A DNA stretch of 64,000 bases from Eledone cirrhosa (taxonomy: Eukaryota): positions 18,724,001 through 18,788,000 of the forward strand of contig OZ024759.1 in assembly GCA_964016885.1 (NCBI GenBank). Reading direction: 5' to 3'. The notes beneath the pieces are model-generated. The model was not told the DNA's origin, searched no databases, and worked only from the letters and a program-made list of their open reading frames with translations. Position 1 is the first letter of the stretch; each line of letters begins with the position of its first letter. A program made the position numbers and the translations under genes. This document shows, one piece after another, positions 3,798-58,956 of the stretch.

Positions 3798-3875
<78 letters not shown>

Positions 3876-4049
3876 TAGCATCAAGACATGCATATTTGTA
3901 TGCATGTTCGTTGATTGCGGTGAAGATGTTCATCAATGATAATCAACTAAGTTAGATTTGAAAACAACTATATATAAAAGCAATACCCGACATTTCTCGG
4001 GACGGGAATTAAATAATTAAGATAATATATATATTATTATATATTTTTG

Positions 4050-5897: not shown

Positions 5898-6435
5898 TAG
5901 TTATGTTTTGGATATAAGATTTGAAATTTATAACTAATGAAAGTGAGGGTTTATTATGTAATTAAATAGCTCAGTACTATAAGTAGGGCACTCTTCTTTC
6001 CTTTACATTTTCTACGGAAATACTTAACACACACATACGGATGTATATGTATGTATATACCCCCCCCCCCCCCACATATATATATTTATATATAAAACAA
6101 CAATGAATCAATACATTTTCAAACTAATATATATATATATGTATATATACAAATAAAGATTCAGAGGGAATCGCATTTCGGCGGGCAGGAAAAGCGAAGC
6201 GAAACGCAAAAATCAGAAATGATACTGGCAAAGTGCTCCATAGTTAAAAACCAGAGCTAAACAATGTGTTAAGAAGCCATACAAAACTGAAAAGGTGGTC
6301 AAGAAGGCATTAACCACTCAAGCCAAAAACCAAATCAAGATAAACAGATCAAAACAAAATAAATGATAAAAATAAATATATATATAATATTAATTCAAAA
6401 TATTAATAAATATAGACATTCACGTAATCAAAATA

Positions 6436-9960: not shown

Positions 9961-10032
9961 TGACGTACATGGGAGTCGAACCCACATCTTTGGTTCTCTG
10001 GACCACTGTGCTACCATTTACACCAACACACC
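9961..10032 (-). tRNA. tRNA-like cloverleaf (pseudo-tRNA or SINE head; loop CCAGAGA, nominal anticodon AGA)
   Basis: ggtgtgt-tg-gtgt-aaatggta-gcac-a-gtggt-ccagaga-accaa-agat-gtggg-ttcgact-cccat-gtacgtc-a. All four arms pair, but there are many G:U pairs, C33 instead of U33 and a short variable loop, so it is unlikely to be a translating tRNA-Ser. Confidence 0.6.
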
Positions 10033-18192: not shown

Positions 18193-18232
<40 letters not shown>

Positions 18233-18234
<2 letters not shown>

Positions 18235-18426
18235 CGAAGGAACTGTGGTAAGGAACCAGATGGAACATAACGCACCAAAGTACTCAATACTTAGGGTAGT
18301 AGAGTGGGTAATAGGGACAAGTAAGACCCCGACGGCTGAGCTCAAGCCGTTTCGACGGCTAATTCTGTACAGAATTAGCCGTCGAAACGGCTTGAGCTCA
18401 GCCGTCGGGGTCTTACTTGTTCCTAT
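18233..18426. mobile_element. Half-hammerhead fold-back element, palindrome centred at 18368/18369
   Basis: ...gtttcgacggctaattctgt|acagaattagccgtcGAAAcggcttgagctcagccgTCggggtc; long arm on -, (TA)n on both sides. Confidence 0.8.
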
Positions 18427-18447
18427 ATATATATCTGTATATATCTG

Positions 18448-18481
<34 letters not shown>

Positions 18482-18615
18482 CATATATATATGAATATAG
18501 ACATAGAATATTCGAAAATATTCTGTATGTTTATAATAAACATTTTGAAGACCTAATCGCTATAGAATAGAATACGTCACGTATTACAATTAGATTCTCG
18601 ATAAAAGCAAGGGAA

Positions 18616-18658
18616 GTAATCTACGCGTTTCATTCTTGTTAGAATTCATCAGGACTAC
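18616..18658 (-). ncRNA. Type I hammerhead ribozyme, first of 6 minus-strand copies (18616+310n, n=0-5)
   Basis: Reverse complement of gtaatc-ta-cgcg-tttc-attcttgttagaat-tcatcag-gactac. Confidence 0.92.
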
Positions 18659-20575
18659 ATATCCAGTGCTTTTATCGAGAATGACACAGCTAGAGACTTA
18701 TAGAATACTTAGCTGTGTACAGGAACTGGTTTGAAAGAGCGGTTGCCGGTCCGGCAGAAATTAGAAATTGGAATAAATGCTCTGAAATAGCGATATATAT
18801 GTGAATATAGACATAGAATATTCGAAAATATTCTGTATGTTTATAATAAACATTTTGAAGACCTAATCGCTATAGAATAGAATACGTCACGTATTACAAT
18901 TAGATTCTCGATAAAAGCAAGGGAAGTAATCTACGCGTTTCATTCTTGTTAGAATTCATCAGGACTACATATCCAGTGCTTTTATCGAGAATGACACAGC
19001 TAGAGACTTATAGAATACTTAGCTGTGTACAGGAACTGGTTTGAAAGAGCGGTTGCCGGTCCGGCAGAAATTAGAAATTGGAATAAATGCTCTGAAATAG
19101 CGATATATATGTGAATATAGACATAGAATATTCGAAAATATTCTGTATGTTTATAATAAACATTTTGAAGACCTAATCGCTATAGAATAGAATACGTCAC
19201 GTATTACAATTAGATTCTCGATAAAAGCAAGGGAAGTAATCTACGCGTTTCATTCTTGTTAGAATTCATCAGGACTACATATCCAGTGCTTTTATCGAGA
19301 ATGACACAGCTAGAGACTTATAGAATACTTAGCTGTGTACAGGAACTGGTTTGAAAGAGCGGTTGCCGGTCCGGCAGAAATTAGAAATTGGAATAAATGC
19401 TCTGAAATAGCGATATATATGTGAATATAGACATAGAATATTCGAAAATATTCTGTATGTTTATAATAAACATTTTGAAGACCTAATCGCTATAGAATAG
19501 AATACGTCACGTATTACAATTAGATTCTCGATAAAAGCAAGGGAAGTAATCTACGCGTTTCATTCTTGTTAGAATTCATCAGGACTACATATCCAGTGCT
19601 TTTATCGAGAATGACACAGCTAGAGACTTATAGAATACTTAGCTGTGTACAGGAACTGGTTTGAAAGAGCGGTTGCCGGTCCGGCAGAAATTAGAAATTG
19701 GAATAAATGCTCTGAAATAGCGATATATATGTGAATATAGACATAGAATATTCGAAAATATTCTGTATGTTTATAATAAACATTTTGAAGACCTAATCGC
19801 TATAGAATAGAATACGTCACGTATTACAATTAGATTCTCGATAAAAGCAAGGGAAGTAATCTACGCGTTTCATTCTTGTTAGAATTCATCAGGACTACAT
19901 ATCCAGTGCTTTTATCGAGAATGACACAGCTAGAGACTTATAGAATACTTAGCTGTGTACAGGAACTGGTTTGAAAGAGCGGTTGCCGGTCCGGCAGAAA
20001 TTAGAAATTGGAATAAATGCTCTGAAATAGCGATATATATGTGAATATAGACATAGAATATTCGAAAATATTCTGTATGTTTATAATAAACATTTTGAAG
20101 ACCTAATCGCTATAGAATAGAATACGTCACGTATTACAATTAGATTCTCGATAAAAGCAAGGGAAGTAATCTACGCGTTTCATTCTTGTTAGAATTCATC
20201 AGGACTACATATCCAGTGCTTTTATCGAGAATGACACAGCTAGAGACTTATAGAATACTTAGCTGTGTACAGGAACTGGTTTGAAAGAGCGGTTGCCGGT
20301 CCGGCAGAAATTAGAAATTGGAATAAATGCTCTGAAATAGCGATATATATGTGAATATAGACATAGAATATTCGAAAATATTCTGTATGTTTATAATAAA
20401 CATTTTGAAGACCTAATCGCTATAGAATAGAATACGTCACGTATTACAATTAGATTCTCGATAAAAGCAACCGGCAACCGGCAACCGGCAACCGCTCTTT
20501 CAAACCAGTTCCTGTACACAGCTAAGTATTCTATAAGTCTCTAGCTGTGTCATTCTCGATAAAAGCACTGGATAT

Positions 20576-20618
20576 GTAGTCCTGATGAATTCTAACAAGA
20601 ATGAAACGCGTAGATTAC
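20576..20618 (+). ncRNA. Type I hammerhead ribozyme, first of 8 plus-strand copies (20576+310n, n=0-7); predicted cleavage after 20612
   Basis: Stem I gtagtc/gattac, core CTGATGA (20582), stem II attct-aaca-agaat, GAAA (20603), palindromic stem III acgcgt, GUA triplet; distal stem I attctcgataaaagca/tgcttttatcgagaat (20552-20640). Confidence 0.93.
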
Positions 20619-22947
20619 TTCCCTTGCTTTTATCGAGAATCTAATTGTAATACGTGACGTATTCTATTCTATAGCGATTAGGTCTTCAAAATGTTTATTA
20701 TAAACATACAGAATATTTTCGAATATTCTATGTCTATATTCACATATATATCGCTATTTCAGAGCATTTATTCCAATTTCTAATTTCTGCCGGACCGGCA
20801 ACCGCTCTTTCAAACCAGTTCCTGTACACAGCTAAGTATTCTATAAGTCTCTAGCTGTGTCATTCTCGATAAAAGCACTGGATATGTAGTCCTGATGAAT
20901 TCTAACAAGAATGAAACGCGTAGATTACTTCCCTTGCTTTTATCGAGAATCTAATTGTAATACGTGACGTATTCTATTCTATAGCGATTAGGTCTTCAAA
21001 ATGTTTATTATAAACATACAGAATATTTTCGAATATTCTATGTCTATATTCACATATATATCGCTATTTCAGAGCATTTATTCCAATTTCTAATTTCTGC
21101 CGGACCGGCAACCGCTCTTTCAAACCAGTTCCTGTACACAGCTAAGTATTCTATAAGTCTCTAGCTGTGTCATTCTCGATAAAAGCACTGGATATGTAGT
21201 CCTGATGAATTCTAACAAGAATGAAACGCGTAGATTACTTCCCTTGCTTTTATCGAGAATCTAATTGTAATACGTGACGTATTCTATTCTATAGCGATTA
21301 GGTCTTCAAAATGTTTATTATAAACATACAGAATATTTTCGAATATTCTATGTCTATATTCACATATATATCGCTATTTCAGAGCATTTATTCCAATTTC
21401 TAATTTCTGCCGGACCGGCAACCGCTCTTTCAAACCAGTTCCTGTACACAGCTAAGTATTCTATAAGTCTCTAGCTGTGTCATTCTCGATAAAAGCACTG
21501 GATATGTAGTCCTGATGAATTCTAACAAGAATGAAACGCGTAGATTACTTCCCTTGCTTTTATCGAGAATCTAATTGTAATACGTGACGTATTCTATTCT
21601 ATAGCGATTAGGTCTTCAAAATGTTTATTATAAACATACAGAATATTTTCGAATATTCTATGTCTATATTCACATATATATCGCTATTTCAGAGCATTTA
21701 TTCCAATTTCTAATTTCTGCCGGACCGGCAACCGCTCTTTCAAACCAGTTCCTGTACACAGCTAAGTATTCTATAAGTCTCTAGCTGTGTCATTCTCGAT
21801 AAAAGCACTGGATATGTAGTCCTGATGAATTCTAACAAGAATGAAACGCGTAGATTACTTCCCTTGCTTTTATCGAGAATCTAATTGTAATACGTGACGT
21901 ATTCTATTCTATAGCGATTAGGTCTTCAAAATGTTTATTATAAACATACAGAATATTTTCGAATATTCTATGTCTATATTCACATATATATCGCTATTTC
22001 AGAGCATTTATTCCAATTTCTAATTTCTGCCGGACCGGCAACCGCTCTTTCAAACCAGTTCCTGTACACAGCTAAGTATTCTATAAGTCTCTAGCTGTGT
22101 CATTCTCGATAAAAGCACTGGATATGTAGTCCTGATGAATTCTAACAAGAATGAAACGCGTAGATTACTTCCCTTGCTTTTATCGAGAATCTAATTGTAA
22201 TACGTGACGTATTCTATTCTATAGCGATTAGGTCTTCAAAATGTTTATTATAAACATACAGAATATTTTCGAATATTCTATGTCTATATTCACATATATA
22301 TCGCTATTTCAGAGCATTTATTCCAATTTCTAATTTCTGCCGGACCGGCAACCGCTCTTTCAAACCAGTTCCTGTACACAGCTAAGTATTCTATAAGTCT
22401 CTAGCTGTGTCATTCTCGATAAAAGCACTGGATATGTAGTCCTGATGAATTCTAACAAGAATGAAACGCGTAGATTACTTCCCTTGCTTTTATCGAGAAT
22501 CTAATTGTAATACGTGACGTATTCTATTCTATAGCGATTAGGTCTTCAAAATGTTTATTATAAACATACAGAATATTTTCGAATATTCTATGTCTATATT
22601 CACATATATATCGCTATTTCAGAGCATTTATTCCAATTTCTAATTTCTGCCGGACCGGCAACCGCTCTTTCAAACCAGTTCCTGTACACAGCTAAGTATT
22701 CTATAAGTCTCTAGCTGTGTCATTCTCGATAAAAGCACTGGATATGTAGTCCTGATGAATTCTAACAAGAATGAAACGCGTAGATTACTTCCCTTGCTTT
22801 TATCGAGAATCTAATTGTAATACGTGACGTATTCTATTCTATAGCGATTAGGTTTTCAAAATGTTTATTATAAACATACAGAATATTTTCGAATATTCTA
22901 TGTCTATATTCACATATATATCGCTATTTCAGAGCATTTATTCCAAT

Positions 22948-22949
<2 letters not shown>

Positions 22950-23015
<66 letters not shown>

Positions 23016-23042
23016 TATATTTACATGTATATATATATATAT

Positions 23043-23081
<39 letters not shown>

Positions 23082-23097
23082 TATATACAGATATATT

Positions 23098-23147
<50 letters not shown>

Positions 23148-23185
23148 ATATGCATGTGTGCCTATATATATATGTACACATACAT
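22950..23185. repeat. (TA)n tract with CAG/CATG interruptions
   Basis: Direct reading. Confidence 0.9.
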
Positions 23186-45195: not shown

Positions 45196-45520
45196 CTAGT
45201 ATACACACATATATATCTATTGCGTGTCCTTTTACATCACGGATCACAGGCCTCGCACACCCGGACTGAACAAAGTCTGAGTTACCGTCTTGGGTCCTGT
45301 TTCCCTCATGGATTCAACTTCCCTCCACAATTTCTGTAATACACCGTCCGTTATTGCACACGCGCTTATACATTCACCACTAGATTCCTTTGGCTCTCAT
45401 GCGGTCAGAAACATATACTCTTACAGCTGATACAGACCAACAAAATACGCACAATCTACTTTTCCCTTCACAGCTTCGTACTTACTTTTGCTCACAGCTT
45501 CGTACTTACAAGCACACACA

Positions 45521-46006
45521 CACTCTTTTACTTACATATACACACATATATCCCCTTGGCTTCGTACGGACGTACACTCTTTTACTTACATATACACACA
45601 TATATCCCCTTGGCTTCGTACGGACGTACACTCTTTTACTTACATATACACACATATATCCCCTTGGCTTCGTACAGACGTACACTCTTTTACTTACATA
45701 TACACACATATATCCCCTTGGCTTCGTACAGACGTACACTCTTTTACTTACATATACACACATATATCCCCTTGGCTTCGTACGGACGTACACTCTTTTA
45801 CTTACATATACACACATATATCCCCTTGGCTTCGTACGGACGTACACTCTTTTACTTACATATACACACATATATCCCCTTGGCTTCGTACGGACGTACA
45901 CTCTTTTACTTACATATACACACATATATCCCCTTGGCTTCGTACAGACGTACACTCTTTTACTTACATATACACACATATATCCCCTTGGCTTCGTACG
46001 GACGTA
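45521..46006. repeat. 54-bp minisatellite, 9 copies
   Basis: cactcttttacttacatatacacacatatatccccttggcttcgtac(g/a)gacgta. Confidence 0.95.
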
Positions 46007-49013: not shown

Positions 49014-49737
49014 TATTATTACACTATGTTATATATATATATGTGTGTGTGTGTGGGTGTGTGTGTGTATATATATATTTATATATGTGTGTGTGTGCGA
49101 GAGTAAAAGTGAGGAAGGAGAAAGAAAGAGATGCACAGAAATGCAGAAAAAGGGAGTTTGCATGTTGGAAAGTATGGACGCTAATTTTGTTTCGAATAAA
49201 ATTACTCTAATCATAAAGAGTGACAATCTAATTTTTGTAATACACATTCTCGAATCTAATCATTAAACAGGAAATCAATACTTGAAACATGAGAAATTTC
49301 CATAATGTTGAAAGAATTTTCTTTTATTTTGCTAACTTTGTTTGTTTTCAATTTTTGGTAAACAATAGAATAGTTGCGGATTTTTAAAGAAAACCTGATT
49401 AAAACAAAGACTGAGGTATTCTATATTATAATGCAATGCTAAAGAATGTAAACGTTGCAGAATTCATCGAAATTTCCAAAAAAAAAAAAAAATGGTAATA
49501 AATAATAAAGGAAAAAAAACAAAATGAAATAAAATAAATACATTTTTAAAATCTATCAAACTTGATAAATGTTTTCCACAGAAGGCGAGATCCGTGAAAG
49601 GAATTCATAATAACTCAAACAACGTATTCCCCTGGAGTGATACTAAAGGATGGAGTAGGGAGAATACGTAGATATTAATAATATTAGTAGGCTTTTTAAT
49701 AAGTTAATTATAGAGTGTGGGATGTACGTATCAGCGG

Positions 49738-50493
49738 AAAGGATCTCCATCGCTTACGACGATGCATGCTTGTCAAGTGTCTTGATCAACAGATCACCTT
49801 GACCAAGATATTAATATGCAGAATAACTTAATTTGTAGAATGTAGGATATACGTATGAAAAGAAAGGATCTCCATCGCTTACGACGATGCATGCTTGTCA
49901 AGTGTCTTGATCAACAGATCACTTTGACCAAGATATTAATATGCAGAATAACTTAATTTGTAGAATGTAGGATATACGTATGAAAAGAAAGGATCTCCAT
50001 CGCTTACGACGATGCATGCTTGTCAAGTGTCTTGATCAACAGATCACCTTGACCAAGATATTAATATGCAGAATAACTTAATTTGTAGAATGTAGGAAAT
50101 ACGTATGAAAAGAAAGGATCTCCATCGCTTACGACGATGCATGCTTGTCAAGTGTCTTGATCAACAGATCACTTTGACCAAGATATTAATATGCAGAATA
50201 ACTTAATTTGTAGAATGTAGGATATACGTATGAAAAGAAAGGATCTCCATCGCTTACGACGATGCATGCTTGTCAAGTGTCTTGATCAACAGATCACCTT
50301 GACCAAGATATTAATATGCAGAATAACTTAATTTGTAGAATGTAGGAAATACGTATGAAAAGAAAGGATCTCCATCGCTTACGACGATGCATGCTTGTCA
50401 AGTGTCTTGATCAACAGATCACCTTGACCAAGATATTAATATGCAGAATAACTTAATTTGTAGAATGTTGGAAATACGTATGAAAAGAAAGGA
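49738..50493. repeat. 125-bp tandem repeat, 6 copies plus diverged flanking partial units
   Basis: ggatctccat at 49741, 49866, 49991, 50116, 50241, 50366. Confidence 0.95.
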
Positions 50494-54758: not shown

Positions 54759-54934
54759 TACATTCATATATTTATAGTTAATACGAAGCATTGTGAGATA
54801 TGTAATAAAAGACCGATAAATTTATAGAGATATACATACACATATATGTACATGTATACGTATTTCACACACATATATATATATATTTATATATATATAT
54901 ATATATATGTGTGTGTGAATATATATATATATAC

Positions 54935-55094
54935 GAAAAGGTATGACCCCGACGGCAGAGCTCAAGCAGTTTCGAAACGGCTTGAGCTCTGCCATCAGGG
55001 TCATACCTTTTCCTATTTCCCACTCTACTACCCTAAGTATTGAGTACTCTGGTGTGTTATGGTCCATCTGATTCCTTACCACAATTCCTTTGTT
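54935..55094. mobile_element. Half-hammerhead fold-back element inverted exactly at tttcGAAA
   Basis: gagctcaagcagtttc|gaaacggcttgagctc. Confidence 0.75.
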
Positions 55095-55114
55095 ATATAT
55101 ATATATATATCTAT

Positions 55115-55452
55115 GTGTGTGAATGAAGTAATTCCGTCGGAAAAGTCCAGGAAAAAAGAGTGCTCTATGTAGGCAACAGAGCTTAATAGTTATGTAATAA
55201 ACAACATAAGGCAATTATTCCATTTACCAGTGGTTTCTTAAAAGCAAAAAATGTTGCTTTCAATCATCAGAATGAAAAAATCCTGGTCTGTTTATTGAAT
55301 TTGGATTTTAAAAATAAATTTGTTTTTAAAATCCAAATTCAATAAACAGACCAGGATTTTTTTCATTCTGATGATTGAAAGCAAAGTTTTTTGCTTTTAA
55401 GAAACCACTGGTAAATGGAATAATTGCCTTATGTTGTTTATTACATAACTAT
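55115..55452. mobile_element. Inverted dimer with hammerheads at 55218-55277 (-) and 55361-55420 (+)
   Basis: tttcatt-CTGATGA-ttgaaagcaaa-gttt-tttgcttttaa-GAAA-ccactgg-TA^aatggaa; palindrome 55186-55452. Confidence 0.85.
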
Positions 55453-55529
55453 ATATATATATAAATATACATATATTCACATATATATATATTTATATAT
55501 ACACACACACATATATGTACATATACATA

Positions 55530-58048: not shown

Positions 58049-58956
58049 GGTGGATTGGCAGTATTGGTAGAGTGACGGATGCCATGCTTTGGCGCATAGT
58101 GTTACGGCCCTTGCCATTCTGAGTTCAAATCCCGCCGAGGTTAACTTTGCCTTTCATCCTTACGGGGTCGATAAAATAAAGTACCAGTAATACACTGGGT
58201 ATTTGCTGGCCTTGTGCCTAACGTAGAAACAATTATTATTATTATTATTATTATTATTTATCCTCTGTCGTCTGGTATTTTGTCTTTTATTCAAAGCGAG
58301 GTCGATAAAATAAAGTACCAGTAATACACTGGGTAATTGCTGGCCTTGTGCCTAACGTAGAAACAATTATTATTATTATTATTATTATTTATCCTCTGTC
58401 GTCTGGTATTTTGTCTTTTATTCAAAGCGGGGTCGATAAAATAAAGTACCAGTAATACACTGGGTATTTGCTGGCCTTGTGCCTAACGTAGAAACAATTA
58501 TTAATTTTTAATATTATTATTTATCCTCTGTCGTCTGGTATTTTGTCTTTTATTCAAAGCGGGGTCGATAAAATAAAGTACCAGTAATACACTGGGTAAT
58601 TGCTGGCCTTGTGCCTAACGTAGAAACAATTATTAATTTTTAATATTATTATTTATCCTCTGTCGTCTGGTATTTTGTCTTTTATTCAAAGCGGGGTCGA
58701 TAAAATAAAGTACCAGTAATACACTGGGTAATTGCTGGCCTTGTGCCTAACGTAGAAACAATTATTAATTTTTAATATTATTATTTATCCTCTGTCGTCT
58801 GGTATTTTGTCTTTTATTCAAAGCGGGGTCGATAAAATAAAGTACCAGTAATACACTGGGTAATTGCTGGCCTTGTGCCTAACGTAGAAACAATTATTAA
58901 TTTTTAATATTATTATTTATCCTCTGTCGTCTGGTATTTTGTCTTTTATTCAAAGC
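58049..58956 (+). repeat. Family A SINE whose 3' half plus ~40 bp of flank is tandemly amplified 6 times (~132-bp unit)
   Basis: ggggtcgataaaataaagtacc at 58164, 58298, 58429, 58561, 58693, 58825. Confidence 0.92.

Follow-up and report, generated by a model that had tools for sequence, protein, structure and literature searches.

Tandem arrays of a retrozyme-like repeat in Eledone cirrhosa are built head to head, their two arms beginning at two different fixed sites of the repeat unit. The array anatomy and the statistics of the family demonstrate this pairing directly, and its cause is quite likely a dimeric Penelope-type RT-endonuclease that primes both nicked strands at two fixed RNA sites, the cDNAs being joined by microhomology with stutter. 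The observation is real and largely as an earlier note on one of these arrays had read it; the elements are of known kinds (retrozyme, Penelope), and what is new is the head-to-head array with two starts.

The window array and its repeat unit

The window is the whole stretch of 64,000 nucleotides that was analysed. It contains, within (TA)n, two arms of a 310-bp unit in opposite orientation (18492-20470 and 20484-22948). Units were numbered from the first base past the GTA cleavage triplet of the hammerhead motif (phase 1). The features are as follows.

18424-18491: left (TA)n target tract
18481-18492 (+): left copy of the candidate target-site duplication ACATATATATAT, in the (TA)n flank
18492-20470 (-): left arm, 6.38 units, sense on the minus strand; outer end at phase 130 (short start), inner end at phase 12
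20467-20470: GCAA microhomology fitting both arms (antisense phases 15-12, sense phases 186-189)
20467-20494 (+): GCAACCG four times (once in the unit), three 7-nt slips between the two ACCG repeats of the unit
20484-22948 (+): right arm, 7.95 units, sense on the plus strand; inner end at phase 182, outer end at phase 165-166 (long start, 35-nt tail)
20566-20624 (+): first of 8 predicted type I hammerhead motifs of the right arm; CUGAUGA core at 20582, GAAAC, GUA triplet ending at 20612, fold taken from the next copy
20981-21087 (+): one copy of phases 59-165, a multi-hairpin domain common to two related families, which holds both start sites
21098-21110 (+): predicted GC hairpin UGCCG-GAC-CGGCA of an intact unit (phases 176-188), its loop containing the inner end of the right arm
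22949-22960 (+): right copy of the candidate target-site duplication ACATATATATAT
22951-23151: right (TA)n target tract

TRF delimited the same parts at 18483-20470 (6.4 copies), 20467-20494 (7-mer, four copies) and 20484-22948 (8.0 copies). Compared with the natural unit, the right arm carries one mismatch and the left arm none except in its outermost bases. Hammerhead cores lie on the minus strand in the left arm and on the plus strand in the right arm, and the strand running inward from each flank is thus antisense to the ribozyme, as had been claimed. The 12-nt ACATATATATAT is present at both outer ends. The left outer start (phase 130-131) lies beside or within ATATATAT of the unit (phases 132-139) with one mismatch at 18491, which qualifies the coincidence described before; the right outer start (phase 165-166) has no such homology to (TA)n.

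The unit is a non-coding tandem repeat with a GC content of about 0.33-0.35, and no ORF of 150 amino acids was found within the window array. By motif and fold, each unit comprises CUGAUGA, a 5-bp stem II, GAAAC, a very short palindromic stem III and a 6-bp stem I. CUGAUGA, GAAAC and GUA together with stems I and II were found in all 14 window copies, stem III being minimal; besides the motifs of the right arm these include 6 on the minus strand in the left arm. Rfam at gathering score reported no hammerhead for the window units, and the assignment of the 310-bp unit to the type I hammerheads therefore rests on the motif and the predicted fold. The family is dispersed, one 32-nt ribozyme motif having 3,923 exact matches in the genome compared with 0 for the reversed control. 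Metazoan non-LTR retrozymes are described as non-coding tandem units of 150-450 bp with a GC content under 45-50%, one type I hammerhead per unit and thousands of copies (PMC7229834; bioRxiv 10.64898/2026.07.22.740005, in their available text). The Eledone array shares the non-coding tandem unit of this length, the low GC content, the predicted hammerhead in each unit and the dispersed multicopy state, and by these sequence features the window element fits a non-LTR retrozyme.

Phases 59-165 show about 70-80% identity with two other repeat families and fold into hairpins, in which 4 of 27 pairs are changed on both sides (6 sequences, from three lineages only). This domain is predicted to be a candidate enzyme-binding element.

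The left arm follows the unit as far as 20470 (phase 12) and ends in ATAAAAGCAA; its phase-12 stop reads ...AAAAGCAA. The right arm keeps the register of the unit from phase 182 onwards, and the two arms meet at GCAA(CCGGCAA)3CCG. The earlier note had seen three copies of CCGGCAA (20471-20491) after the end of the left arm, where the unit has one, and had proposed a join by GCAA with two slips. The three copies and the join were upheld, GCAA being common to both arms. The number of slips was not: a GCAA join needs three, and a count of two is compatible only with a 1-nt overlap. Likewise, the 7-nt spacing of the recurring CCG is correct while the repeat between which the slips occurred is ACCG (phases 182-185 and 189-192). 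These slip repeats adjoin the GC hairpin. The slipping polymerase may have been the RT or a host polymerase, RT stutter at a GC hairpin giving the same letters.

The doubled 7-mer pattern had 2 matches in the 3.0-Gb assembly, one in the window and one on another contig (C2), both at inversion junctions. The C2 junction has the same slip site, another partner end (phase 33, ending CAA) and other arm lengths; the slip is therefore tied to the formation of the junction, and the window junction is not a segmental copy. As argued earlier, a non-mirror junction also speaks against a read fold-back artefact, which we rate as very unlikely. In 7 public runs (one of them uninformative) the family sequence was present and no contig bridged 20472-20480, a neutral result since the runs may stem from other individuals or species.

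Sequence related to the unit was also seen outside this genome. Between 63 and 89% of the sampled words from window positions 20200-20800 were present in runs of 18 coded organisms from 17 studies, and in three of those runs the unit formed one 340-nt contig with at least 99% identity. Close relatives, inter-species transfer or contamination could account for this.

Polarity, start sites and junctions across the family

The unselected sample consisted of the first 100 listed of the 3,923 motif matches, which form 12 clusters on one contig (C1); all 12 were analysed. Stretches chosen by a (TA)n-plus-start pattern comprised 40 from 100 listed of 1,590 matches as well as 58 plus two extensions from 100 listed of 950. 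Altogether 112 stretches were examined (window included; the extension L101 in place of L052), 98 of them chosen by the pattern and nearly all from C1. The pattern fixes the polarity of one arm, and the evidence on polarity therefore rests on the unselected arrays. Among the 12 unselected clusters, 10 had two arms and 2 had a single arm. All 10 two-arm arrays, chosen regardless of polarity, were head-to-head (minus, then plus), the chance of which is 1 in 1,024 if both polarities are equally likely. The family thus shares the polarity seen in the window, as the earlier note had predicted. The 112 stretches yielded 98 head-to-head junctions, 13 stretches with one arm and one opposite junction, which lies inside a duplicated junction (L031). 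The 13 single-arm stretches indicate that the two-arm outcome is not obligatory and count against the mechanism proposed below.

(TA)n was found at both ends of 85 of 93 arrays. Interrupted-TA or unique duplications occurred at both ends of 8 of 93 arrays, compared with 1.0 +/- 1.0 in shuffled pairs; a looser test for target-site duplications was not significant (26 vs 21.6 +/- 2.9).

The outer ends form two classes, at about phase 130 (120-139) and about phase 165 (154-172). One short and one long start were found in 96 of the 96 arrays that could be resolved among the 98, and none had two alike. These 96 comprise 93 resolved by script and three by hand (L063, L084, L097); the long start of L079 was read from an adjoining stretch, and in two of the 98 arrays the arms run beyond the analysed stretch. 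No stretch had been chosen on the basis of more than one of its ends. The window array obeys the same pairing, with 130 on the left and 165-166 on the right. Long starts were exactly at 165 in 78 of 93 arrays and short starts at 130 or 139 in 76 of 93, position 139 being ambiguous within ATATATAT. In all resolved arrays the offset amounts to a tail of about 35 nt at one end only. By analogy, this offset matches the Penelope-like "tail" and the two RT start sites seen in vitro. In 30 of 92 arrays the short-start arm exceeded the other by more than one unit, and in 39 of 92 the long-start arm did. Priming by both 3'-OH ends in (TA)n, as suggested before, is supported as regards priming from both flanks; the choice of site is probably governed by fixed starts some 35 nt apart and not by chance homology.

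In contrast to the outer ends, the centres are variable. Junction phase pairs were distinct in 92 of 93 arrays, so that a single junction shared by all, which the earlier note had weighed against its own expectation of variable phases, was not what the family showed. Mirror-like junctions (within 10 nt) numbered 8 of 93 compared with 6.3 expected. No pile-up of arm ends at the cleavage site was found among 186 ends, 3 lying within 4 nt of it where 4.8 were expected. Microhomology, counted by exact matching, was enriched as predicted: the overlap at 74 simple junctions averaged 2.23 nt compared with 0.76 nt for random phase pairs, reaching at least 2 nt in 43 (13.5 expected) and at least 4 nt in 16 (1.7 expected). 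Short inserts were present at 14 junctions and phase jumps at 11; a supposed insert at the junction of L044 turned out to be a haplotype mismatch. Slips cluster at junctions. Slips or jumps within 100 nt of the junction were found in 11 arms over 19 kb; 11 jumps were listed at more than 100 nt over 286 kb, of which, on our reading, 7 are mapping noise at the (TA)n outer ends and 4 are parts of junction stutters.

Several arrays showed further peculiarities. The longest stutter seen, about 11 successive slips of 9-11 nt, lies beside the junction of L181 (near 6010-6140). In L031 the junction itself is duplicated (3843-4020, about 175 bp), and its 65|29 junction with a 5-nt overlap recurs in L185 with other arm lengths. 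In L079/L102 and L101 the arms reach 27 to more than 30 units, and their variants are spread across several units, which suggests later unequal exchange.

Template and origin of the arrays

Of 65 arrays whose arms each have at least two units, 62 carried the same majority haplotype in both arms, whereas two random arrays share a haplotype with a probability of about 0.10 (32 substitution haplotypes among 90 arrays). Most haplotypes are fixed across all units of both arms. The arms differ in haplotype in L087, L095 and L096. L095 consists of X,X and then 15 Y units; both of its arms read X,X,Y from the outer ends, 35 nt out of step, and switch in step, as expected if two polymerases had begun 35 nt from each other on a single RNA of mixed haplotype. 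In L087 and L096 the difference between the arms follows no such order. Among same-turn unit-sites, 68 differ between the arms compared with 7 shared in parallel, and one variant in L057 occurs once per arm, neither mirrored nor parallel.

The mixed order of L095 indicates that the template is not always a monomeric circle. The earlier note had put the arms at about 6.4 and 7.9 turns of reverse transcription; the lengths are confirmed at 6.38 and 7.95 units, while the turns are an interpretation, L095 reading like a mixed multimer. For a typical array a circular template is nonetheless likely. An uncleaved linear multimer transcribed from an older array, a source compatible with double priming, would make the lengths something other than turns, and we consider it the less likely form though one deserving serious weight. 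L075 points to it as well as L095 with its arms switching in step, the weak, minimal and palindromic stem III suggests slow cleavage, the Penelope-like protein PAc uses uncleaved RNA in vitro (available text of PMC11167929) and amphibian retrozymes are described as accumulating multimers (PMC7229834). The same source describes circle formation by metazoan retrozymes. Moreover, with 32 haplotypes among 90 arrays, mostly fixed in both arms, a monomer bottleneck is needed in the cycle; the arm ends are not piled up at the cleavage site; and copying of multimers alone would shorten the arms each round, whereas they reach at least 27 units. Array-wide haplotypes, unpiled ends and long arms thus speak for a circle at some stage of the cycle.

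Since the outer ends are precise and belong to opposite classes, and the centre is ragged and rich in microhomology, the simplest reading places a priming site at each outer end. The enzyme, its dimeric state, the single event, the form of the template and the polymerase that slipped are the inferred elements of the following scheme. A dimeric Penelope-like RT-endonuclease would nick both strands of (TA)n, and the head-to-head insertion would likely be completed in one event. Two cDNAs would be started on the same RNA, one at about unit position 165 and the other at about 130. Whether the template was a circular monomer or an uncleaved multimer, each subunit would proceed through several units and stop at a random place. 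The inward-pointing 3' ends of the cDNAs would anneal by a few bases (GCAA in the window), three slips between the two ACCG repeats beside the GC hairpin may have followed, and extension would then fill both gaps. Several observations count against this Penelope reading: a partner with the start-site domain was not found in the 42 loci examined; PAc, in the available text of PMC11167929, uses its start sites without a strand difference, the use of both in a single event not being demonstrated there; 68 unit-sites differ between arms as opposed to 7 in parallel; and L087, L095 and L096 differ in haplotype between their arms.

The same polarity and a shared haplotype would also arise from single priming. 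The second arm would then be a copy of the first, made after fold-back or self-switching of the first cDNA (or by self-priming of an antisense RNA), and the endonuclease would cut the far end back to the other fixed site. Self-priming on an antisense template has been proposed for Penelope inverted repeats (PMC3846280) and endonuclease-mediated resolution for the tail (PMC8557442), each in the available text, while the two start sites match RT starts in vitro (PMC11167929), which counts against single priming. The X,X,Y order of L095 fits a copying of the outer three units too, neighbouring short families have mirror-like junctions, and the limit on length is always satisfied if the longer arm is called the first. 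However, either arm can be the longer one, and the junctions of this family exceed chance hardly at all in mirror symmetry. The two outer ends are exact and never of the same class; the long end has no (TA)n homology to fix a ligation point, and a ligated end would need the exactness of a priming site. We therefore regard single priming as unlikely.

L1 twin priming employs two target 3'-OH primers on one RNA, the inward cDNAs being joined by microhomology, and leaves a target-site duplication. Among L1 insertions it is the less common result; the first primer sits on poly(A) and the second site varies. The two inward cDNA arms and the microhomology join of our arrays resemble it; they differ in that the two-arm form predominates, each arm has its own fixed internal site, no poly(A) tail is seen and both arms cover the same sequence repeatedly. 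Classical LINE-type twin priming, with one primer at the RNA 3' end and the second at a chance internal homology (here ATATATAT, which the short start adjoins), would yield the observed polarity and join. It is rendered improbable by the lack of a poly(A) or other 3' tail in the arrays read, by both starts lying away from the ribozyme-made end (phase 310/1) and by arm sequences that overlap over many units. Least probable of all is an origin at the DNA level or by artefact, i.e. two separate insertions into a single (TA)n tract, subsequent inversion, segmental copying or an assembled fold-back read. The window junction unbridged in the public runs and the signs of later shuffling in the long arrays (L079/L102, L101) would be in keeping with it, whereas shared haplotypes, the pairing of long and short starts, distinct junctions with non-mirror phases, unrelated outer flanks, a candidate target-site duplication and the same anatomy in a related family are not.

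As to the join itself, polymerase-theta-type end joining uses 2-6 nt of microhomology and leaves short templated repeats at the junction. The arrays are similar in their microhomology and in short repeated units that are seen at the junction only, L181 having as many as about 11 slips.

Relation to retrozymes and Penelope-like elements

RT-made tandem cDNA from circles and the mobilisation of retrozymes by Penelope-like elements have been proposed before (PMC7229834; bioRxiv 10.64898/2026.07.22.740005). Metazoan retrozymes are, however, described as direct tandems in the available text, whereas 98 of the 112 stretches here are head-to-head with two fixed starts. The available text of PMC7229834 does not mention inverted units or unit orientation and that of the preprint does so only in its reference list, though its supplements could show some. 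In the literature searched, in which subscription journals are thinly covered, no report of head-to-head retrozyme arrays or of one start site per strand was found. The preprint, in its available text, leans to local expansion by unequal crossover; the multimers here look built at insertion, and retrozyme arrays have probably arisen in this way rather than grown later.

According to the available text of PMC11167929, PAc cuts and extends both target strands, needs no homology, is a predicted dimer and starts at two adjacent internal RNA sites that delimit a tail of 30-40 nt. Penelope-like elements have head-to-head inverted arms and a tail at one end only (PMC3846280, PMC8557442), and PMC8557442 calls the origin of both undefined. 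Endonuclease-containing elements of this type share with the arrays a head-to-head inverted, 5'-truncated arm, a one-end tail of 30-40 nt, (TA)n or AT-rich targets, a type I hammerhead and two internal RT starts (PMC3846280, PMC8557442, PMC11167929, as far as their available text goes). Unlike them, the arrays are without a coding frame, and each arm consists of many units of one short repeat. The strict pairing of one long with one short start, counted here in 96 arrays, likewise sets the arrays apart from the descriptions of Penelope-like elements.

About a hundred young, nearly unmutated insertions made this pairing rule countable and comparable with the published self-priming model. Tentatively, and with a chance we put a little short of even, a dimeric Penelope-type enzyme may run two rolling-circle RTs at once on one small circular ribozyme RNA, each with its own fixed start and primed by one strand of the cut target, and produce palindromic arrays of several kb in one step. 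A rule of one site per strand may then account for the inverted repeats of Penelope-like elements in general and for their tail at one end. If true, such a two-headed, target-primed writer of multi-kilobase inserts would be of interest for RT-based genome tools. Phases 59-165 would be the short RNA domain that the enzyme likely binds.

The genome contains RT plus GIY-YIG frames of up to 1,096 codons, some of them paired head to head within (TA)n and extended on one side. An autonomous element carrying the start-site domain of the unit was not found among 42 GIY-YIG loci examined of 150 scored, from 10,596 candidates; two matches of the partner search at GIY-YIG loci were neighbouring short repeats and not this domain. 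L140 and L141 are young GIY-YIG RT elements forming head-to-head palindromes of 3.3-3.8 kb (97-99.7% identity) in (TA)n, L140 with about 70 nt extra at one end. Two related repeat families, one with a unit of about 321 bp without an obvious hammerhead and another with one (L096:4200-5030, L082:3315-3820, L106:2436-2875), share phases 59-165 and the two-start, head-to-head anatomy. In one of them, most two-arm copies among 20 loci were long-short and head-to-head.

Other repeats of the window were noted as well. A short family forms head-to-head palindromes in (TA)n with a mirror-like centre at 18230-18430 and 54930-55100, one arm being about 80 nt longer, and also occurs beside GIY-YIG loci (L121, L131, L138, L146). 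The head-to-head pair at 55120-55455 carries a different type I hammerhead-like motif (cores at 55270 on the minus strand and 55368 on the plus strand); it lies in (TA)n as a 268-nt palindrome (97%), one arm exceeding the other by about 65 nt. At 9961-10032 (minus strand) lies a tRNA-like match of 41.8 bits, possibly the head of a tRNA-derived SINE. Further young tandem arrays are located at 49698-50493, 45520-46006 and 58163-58956 (units of 125, 54 and 132 bp; 97-99% matches).
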